Source: an uncultured Verrucomicrobiae bacterium
GTDB taxonomy: Bacteria > Chlamydiota > Chlamydiia > Chlamydiales > Rhabdochlamydiaceae
Reading direction: 5' to 3'
Length of the DNA: 64,000 bases
Assembly: GCA_963718565.1 (NCBI GenBank)
Contig: OY970364.1
Coordinates: forward strand, 2,048,001-2,112,000
Shown piece after piece: positions 22,104-23,083 of this stretch. Within the stretch, counting starts at the first letter, position 1. Each line of letters starts with the position of its first letter. Position numbers and translations under genes: made by a program. The notes beneath the pieces were generated by a model that saw nothing but the letters and a program-made list of their open reading frames with translations, had not been told where the DNA came from and did no database searches.

Positions 22104-23083
22104 GGGAGAGGCTTAAGGGATTTTTTTAGCGCATATTCTTTGAGTGTTTCTGATAAACGCGAAAACTCTTTTTCTTTTTTGATCCAAATCGTCGTTCCTT
22201 GGCCATGAGAAATGTGGATCTCTTCATAATCAGCAGGGGTGGCAATGCGAGAATATCCATACACATCACCCTGCAAACCTAGCGCACGTCTTTCCGTGTC
22301 ATGCGCCACGATCACAGAAACTTTGTGAAAGAGAAGCTGCACTAGGTCTCCGCGAAGGTATAGACCCGGATCGACAAATGCACAATCGATGCGGTGGCAT
22401 TTGACGAGATTTGTGATAAAGGCATCCAGTTCAATCAAGTAAAAGTTGTCAATTAAGGAGTAATCTTTATGAAAGCTAGTTTGATAGGAACATGCTTTAT
22501 AGACGTGTTCTGACCCAAAGTATTTGTAAGGAGCACGGCTATCATCTACTTTTCGATAGCTAAGATAAGCAATGGGAATCCAATTGGTATAGTCTGAATA
22601 GAGATTGAGACAATGGTTCATCCAGTCAGGTCCATAACCGTCTGTGATAAATTCCACGGAAATGACTTTATAGCAACAATCTAAGAAATATTTTGTGGAA
22701 AATCCCAGTCCAAATTCCAACAACGTTCGTACGTTATACGCGTTGAATATTTCATGAAAATGAGAGATATGATCTGTGTATCCGCCACGGTCTCCTTGCT
22801 CGAGAAGCCATTCGTAGGTGATTTCTTCTGCGTCGGTGATGCTATCATTAGCAAAAACAGATGTATGCAAGCTGAGGATCAGTATTATAAAACAAATTAT
22901 ACCGAAACAGCATGAAGAATCGGTTTTTGGCTGCGCTGAACATCCCAGATTTTGATCCCGGCTGTATCGCACAACTTGTTCAAGTTGTGCTGCTTCGCCG
23001 CCGCTTCGCTGGTTCAAACTCCGGGCGCCAGCTTTGCCAAAATTTCGATTCTTCATGCTGTTTCGGTATACAAACTTCTTCAT
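22100..23083 (-). CDS. Secreted hypothetical protein (possible methyltransferase fold) with a 57-codon palindromic element in its signal peptide
   Basis: LLEFGLGFST, AFVDPG, AHDTE motifs; AAGGA 7 nt before ATG. Confidence 0.6.
   Translation of the reverse strand: MKKFVYRNSMKNRNFGKAGARSLNQRSGGEAAQLEQVVRYSRDQNLGCSAQPKTDSSCCFGIICFIILILSLHTSVFANDSITDAEEITYEWLLEQGDRGGYTDHISHFHEIFNAYNVRTLLEFGLGFSTKYFLDCCYKVISVEFITDGYGPDWMNHCLNLYSDYTNWIPIAYLSYRKVDDSRAPYKYFGSEHVYKACSYQTSFHKDYSLIDNFYLIELDAFITNLVKCHRIDCAFVDPGLYLRGDLVQLLFHKVSVIVAHDTERRALGLQGDVYGYSRIATPADYEEIHISHGQGTTIWIKKEKEFSRLSETLKEYALKKSLKPLP
22900..23068. mobile_element. MITE family B (169 bp plus TA duplication), in-frame in CDS
   Basis: TIR taccgaaacagcatgaagaatcg / cgattcttcatgctgtttcggta; TA on both sides; central gcacaacttg..caagttgtgc hairpin. 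Confidence 0.88.

Follow-up and report, generated by a model that had tools for sequence, protein, structure and literature searches.

Rickettsia palindromic elements (RPEs), about 150 nt in length, are described as lying both between genes and in frame within them (PMC2229807, PMC10969869, PMC1166351), and the parts of these papers available to us place 85 of the 728 RPEs of R. felis within ORFs (PMC1166351), report one RPE-bearing enzyme that is translated and active (PMC2229807), and attribute a conserved encoded peptide to the elements (PMC10969869). Again as given in excerpts, the RUP element of Streptococcus pneumoniae is a TA-flanked, intergenic MITE whose ends resemble those of IS630-Spn1, and the Correia/NEMIS elements of Neisseria include one size class that is open-framed and gene-fused and another that carries stops and is intergenic (both PMC3049150, PMC2229807). 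In the Yersinia RU-2/YPAL fusions, a hydrophobic cluster of the element is said, in the portions available, to help create the signal (PMC2759123, PMC2229807).

Against these descriptions we compared an element in the window (the whole 64,000-nt stretch of DNA analysed here, carried by a genome that we call G000) belonging to a repeat family that we call family B. Like RPEs, as far as descriptions can be compared, family B is palindromic and occurs both between genes and in frame within the genes of an intracellular bacterium; unlike RPEs, it sits in another phylum, has clear TA ends and end sequences resembling IS630, and lacks a conserved peptide, since from one subfamily to the next its core changes reading frame or is replaced. 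Because the conserved-peptide feature fails and the likeness is one of description, we do not file family B as an RPE. The RPE passages available to us (PMC2229807, PMC10969869, PMC1166351) do not state a signal-peptide bias, unlike what we report for family B below. Like RUP and Correia/NEMIS, again by description, family B is small, bounded by terminal inverted repeats (TIRs), non-autonomous and shaped as a long stem-loop, and its G000 copies recall the Correia size classes in that subfamily B1 inserts 171 nt and subfamilies B2/B3 insert 172 nt, which shifts the reading frame; it differs from both in its host, and from RUP in that the latter is intergenic. Unlike the RU-2/YPAL fusions, family B in its hydrophilic reading enters a pre-existing signal that is insert-free in homologs. 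In the literature covered (titles and the first part of abstracts, with few subscription papers and no supplements) we found no account of family B-type elements in chlamydiae or of a signal-peptide bias; the part of PMC9997750 available held no MITE content, and the string 'chlamyd' is absent from PMC10969869. This is a known kind of element, to which we add a codon-phase rule, an orientation bias and a signal-peptide excess.

The features of the locus, in window positions, are these:

22100..23083, minus strand: host ORF of 327 aa, insert included, without a Pfam or NCBIfam family and with a weak methyltransferase-like lead
23071..23083, minus strand: native start, comprising the ATG and the basic n-region as far as the insertion
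22850..22897, minus strand: h- and c-region native to the predicted signal peptide, 16 aa, for which the -3/-1 rule predicts cleavage after Val-Phe-Ala
22900..23068, no strand assigned: family B (subfamily B1) MITE, 169 nt, one long hairpin, without a transposase
22900..22922, no strand assigned: terminal inverted repeat, 23 nt, giving on the coding strand the hydrophobic end of the insert (..SSCCFGI)
23046..23068, no strand assigned: terminal inverted repeat, 23 nt, giving on the coding strand the start of the insert
22898..22899, no strand assigned: TA copy, likely target duplication, ending the Ile codon that closes the insert
23069..23070, no strand assigned: TA copy, likely target duplication, positions 2-3 of Val codon 5
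23086..23111, minus strand: solo remnant left by an older family B end of B2 type, 26 nt, matching three B2-type ends at 20-22 of 26 nt
23094..24041, minus strand: upstream glycosyltransferase family 25 gene, whose last codons derive from the remnant

Over 25 nt, made up of 23 nt plus a TA per side, the arms at 22898-22922 and 23046-23070 show 100% complementarity, and the element spans 173 nt (TA, 169 nt, TA) for a net gain of 171 nt, or 57 stop-free codons, after codon 5. Arms and ORF agree with the first-pass annotation, which had called a 169-bp element with 23-bp perfect TIRs and a TA duplication, stop-free over 57 codons. The element strand folds as a hairpin at -93.8 kcal/mol (z -11.9; none of 200 shuffles was equally stable), and two plant miRNA models (Rfam) that matched far below their cut-offs were taken as hairpin noise. 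As read in the host gene, the insert contains nine K+R and four D+E residues with a GRAVY of -0.92, and reading this copy in the opposite orientation yields a false h-like stretch. No promoter-like or terminator-like site was found at 22800-23200. Judged by its sequence, the element fits a TA-flanked, IS630-type MITE, whose insertion would have duplicated the TA.

The host ORF lies in a glycosyltransferase/methyltransferase cluster, and its product had no Pfam or NCBIfam match and no PDB sequence match below E 0.16; the Atlas lead was Methyltransf_24 (score 0.90, 42% of members). Sec signal peptides carry small residues at -3/-1 and usually measure about 20-30 residues. Scripted removal of the element together with one TA gave a 270-aa protein with a 21-residue signal-like start, the same short start that had been proposed from the sequence beforehand. 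The predicted signal measures 78 residues with the insert, which exceeds the usual Sec length, and 21 without it; a basic n-region, an h-region and small -3/-1 residues are present, and the h- and c-region are intact. The gene caller of this analysis placed the host start inside the h-region, so that the signal was missed; in-frame family B copies mislead gene annotation.

Five of 40 relatives yielded full-length homologs of the host protein, at six loci, five of which were aligned (a 591-aa fusion, L005, was left out). All five aligned homologs lack the 57 residues, including two syntenic ones at 54% and 52% identity, and the outcome named beforehand as refuting, an extension carried by all orthologs, did not arise. 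No empty, single-TA site came to light at the DNA level, the orthologs being too diverged for base-level comparison, and four DNA runs gave patchy contig coverage of the region with no joint across the whole element.

Immediately upstream, the remnant begins at the TA of a Tyr codon in the glycosyltransferase gene, where likeness to two orthologs stops, and it supplies the stop of that gene (23094-23096), which is overlapped by the AAGGA site (23091-23095). Since AAGGA lies inside this older family B remnant, the ribosome site is probably not ancestral, and from its sequence it would probably be a gift of the older insertion. The first-pass annotation was right about the position of AAGGA and ATG upstream of the element, and its idea that AAGGA is a leftover native site gives way to a probable origin in the remnant. 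Across G000, about a dozen called genes finish with short peptides seemingly read from family B ends, which provide them with a new stop; examples are the genes ending at 646010, 910885, 1019894, 1290081, 1423034, 1426659, 1638420 and 2071094.

Evaluating the whole of G000, we found 123 end-like sites (up to four mismatches), compared with 0, 2 and 0 in three simulated genomes, and 38 complete family B copies of 101-292 nt (two 44-48-nt stubs and long chance pairings were set aside) with TA at both ends in 36, so that the census bore out the expectation of further copies. Seven are 173-nt B1 copies, four of these in genes, and most others are 174-nt B2/B3 copies. The window copy differs from the majority sequence of its subfamily by 7 changes (about 4%). 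Family B DNA matches occurred in 19 of the 41 genomes searched, and among the 80 matches listed the records with a family B end were titled chlamydial in 52 cases (three of them by a genus name that we take to be chlamydial), labelled Verrucomicrobia in 20, and other in 1. Together with gene content, these titles point to an environmental chlamydia as the likely host.

The right end of an IS630 in genome G016 agrees with B1 at 16 of 26 positions and with six sister ends at 20-23; for random TA sites the mean is 8.3 of 26, and 0.3% of them reach 15. Decayed pieces of this IS630 lineage persist in G000 at 67-89% protein identity. This end similarity makes an IS630-type transposase the likely mobiliser of family B. 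No IS630 with ends identical to B1, and hence no exact parent, was found in the genomes searched. Three candidates were rejected as parent: the resident 15-copy IS630 of G000 has different ends, matching B1 at only 14 and 10 of 26 and sharing with B ends no more than the initial bases and a short inner motif; a 1115-nt end pair (L119) turned out to be two adjacent MITEs; and a 935-nt end pair in G000 contains only a fragment of another transposase. We also observed an IS630, related to the likely parent, that is accompanied by two identical B-type MITE copies, one or both of which lie inside it (L189, G013:C5:256309-259719).

A second family in the window, family A (at 2868), differs in its ends and is flanked by an exact 4-bp duplication in 52 of its 76 end-pairs, as opposed to the TA of family B; the two families are independent, as had been asserted. 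Palindromic repeat families beyond A and B were seen at window positions 45452-45694, 38523-39022, 46970-47182 and 13886-14307. Between 5771 and 9920 the window also contains two transposase-like genes, nearly identical, that belong to a 1681-nt perfect inverted duplication, which may be real or an assembly artefact; a long collagen-like repeat region lies at 10730-13400, and there the gene caller took the opposite strand.

Coding landings of family B are strongly depleted in G000 (8 of 38 copies, where 79% of TA sites are coding according to the gene calls made here; p 4.5e-14), a few copies that replace just the last codons of a gene being counted as intergenic. Six of these eight are in frame, in the window gene, an MFS transporter (codon 5), ybeY (codon 2), a signal-bearing protein (codon 2), a CPBP protease loop and the marC C-terminus (ybeY and marC are names that we presume from recognising the sequences); the other two break hypothetical ORFs. 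Other genomes contributed at least 15 in-frame copies among 125 elements (one frame-shifting gene-end entry dropped), and a further scan at least 15 among 84 (six repeats and two frame-shifting gene-end entries dropped), giving 36 in-frame copies (6 + 15 + 15) among those listed from several genomes. Against a positional background taken from G000 alone and applied to all genomes, 19 of the 36 listed copies fall within codons 1-30, where 10.8% would be expected (p 6e-10), and 12 within codons 1-10 (3.8% expected), with 17 lying beyond codon 30. With signal peptides defined by a simple hydrophobicity rule, genes by a home-made caller and starts partly by eye, a hydrophobic N-terminal stretch was present in nine of the 12 listed first-10-codon copies (30% expected, p 0.002) and in 13 of the 19 listed first-30-codon copies (30% expected, p 0.0005).

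The N-terminal copies lie anywhere between codon 2 and a point just beyond the predicted cleavage site, among them copies several residues ahead of the h-region or at its end, and the remaining in-frame sites include cytoplasmic N-termini (ybeY), near-C-terminal positions and protein interiors. These varied positions indicate that the rule concerns the edges of signal peptides and not one boundary. Family A shows a similar tendency, in that 15 of its 76 pairs are spanned by an ORF, 14 of these being N-terminal and seven of the 14 passing the same hydrophobicity rule (p 0.03). The window site had been presented as a repeat of the family A pattern at 2868, placed at the n/h boundary: the signal-peptide bias stands (the nine of 12 above) and the strict boundary does not survive the scatter of positions.

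Among individual hosts, ybeY turned up in each of 12 good genomes from the genus and is single in G000, where it carries a B1 copy after codon 2. In RecD (L020 / L031, G013:C7:251372-251547) a 58-codon B insert separates the N-terminal part from the helicase motifs, and the insert-bearing protein still scores above the NCBIfam recD cut-off. Two side observations belong here: codon 5 of a lipoprotein signal hosts an in-frame family B copy (L301:901-1064), in a protein that, we assume, resembles a type III secretion ring lipoprotein, and two similar-looking exported proteins (homology judged by eye) carry family A at codon 5 (G000:C1:923878) and family B just past the signal (L053, genome G005).

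Codon phase constrains these landings tightly. Two of the six frames of B1 are open, both with TA at codon positions 2-3, and because B1 is open in that phase alone it can keep the frame at no codons other than TTA, CTA, ATA and GTA (Leu, Ile, Val); 31 of the 36 listed in-frame copies sit at TA-ending Leu, Ile or Val codons. As the 30% background was restricted to such codons, the codon rule holds without explaining the signal-peptide excess. The more hydrophilic orientation (judged by eye) is used by 29 of the 31, the other orientation being open in 41 versus 55 of 85 orientable sampled copies (p 9e-6). Four genic copies carry 15 amino-acid-changing and 4 silent substitutions (22% silent expected), and the insert peptide shows no protein-level constraint. 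Genic copies contain no stops or indels, an openness that is partly true by definition, and five intergenic copies contain four stops and two indels (the latter might be assembly errors).

The flanks of the G000 copies show no preference beyond TA, leaving targeting of AT-rich flanks unsupported, and the 30 intergenic copies of G000 are not enriched near starts (11 of 30 lie within 50 nt of one, against 25.5%; p 0.12). Taken together, these results fit a landing at TA that is then filtered by selection on the translated product. The best reading of the signal-peptide bias is survival combined with the Leu/Ile/Val-codon rule, the position bias looking like the work of selection and not of targeting; an extra peptide is probably least harmful at signal peptides, hence the pile-up there.

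For the window gene, we consider it reasonably probable, as a reading of sequence, that a MITE landed in frame at Val codon 5 of a gene that would still be translated and exported, the 57-residue passenger being trimmed with the signal, and that selection retains such landings. An IS630-type transposase likely moved the non-coding MITE into the TA of Val codon 5; translation from the native ATG would then yield a precursor with a 78-residue signal carrying a 57-residue hydrophilic passenger, which would likely be cut off together with the signal upon export. The hydrophobic last residues of the element may replace the Phe-Val split away from the h-region, and selection would likely retain in-frame landings and purge frame-breaking ones.

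Set against this reading is the unlikely but serious alternative that the insertion inactivated the host gene, the frame staying open only because the event was recent and the gene could be spared: the hairpin begins at nt 14 of the coding sequence, and a 78-residue signal is perhaps not exported. The host gene is indeed accessory (found in five of 40 relatives), and its open frame alone is therefore no proof of use; at 7 changes from the majority, with about 5% of random changes creating a stop, the window copy is too young for a dead gene to surely show lesions; and the hairpin beside the start is very stable. Across the family, however, frame-breaking landings are nearly absent and in-frame ones persist, single-copy ybeY and a RecD above its NCBIfam cut-off both bear copies, and, folded with the element, AAGGA and ATG of the window gene stay outside the main hairpin.

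Less probable still is that the gene works from an in-frame start inside the element, most of the passenger never being made. In-frame ATG, TTG and GTG codons do occur at codons 10, 23 and 38, and in the ybeY copy (L213, G000:C1:652780-652952) two right-arm substitutions created an in-frame TTG, six codons ahead of where native sequence resumes, that is a possible new start. Yet ribosome-site pairing at the three window candidates is weak or nil (0.1, -3.5 and 0.4 vs -5.9 kcal/mol at the native ATG), the candidates are buried in the hairpin, and such a restart would need no open frame, whereas the copies that survive at N-termini have an open frame and a length divisible by three.

We regard as very improbable a preference of the transposase or element for DNA near start codons or for signal-peptide codons: the strong N-terminal and signal-peptide enrichment, the genic position of four of the seven 173-nt B1 copies of G000 and two family B events within 40 nt at the window locus would suit it, but the TA-only flank preference, the lack of significant clustering of the 30 intergenic copies near starts and the 17 listed in-frame copies beyond codon 30 speak against it. 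Removal of the hairpin at the RNA level by splicing or ribosome hopping, restoring the short signal, is the least credible of all, for although the arms pair both TA ends in one stable stem, skipping would make length and stops irrelevant, yet the copies that persist within genes nearly always have a length divisible by three, lack stops and favour the hydrophilic reading.

Beyond in-frame insertion with export and trimming, we offer more tentatively the broader idea that MITEs of chlamydiae use signal peptides as self-clearing landing sites. The element, open mainly in the phase that lands on Leu, Ile or Val codons, would in one orientation be read as a basic, hydrophilic peptide and, through its hydrophobic end, rebuild the start of the h-region, after which signal peptidase would discard the passenger and leave the mature protein untouched. 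If true, this would amount to an intron-like neutrality reached via the export pathway, perhaps itself selected in the element.

Our findings extend protein-invading palindromic elements to environmental chlamydiae and tie family B to IS630, and they outline a survival rule for such elements, namely TA-ending aliphatic codons, a hydrophilic orientation, protein ends and signal peptides. Family B copies may also serve as natural tests of how long a Sec n-region can be tolerated.
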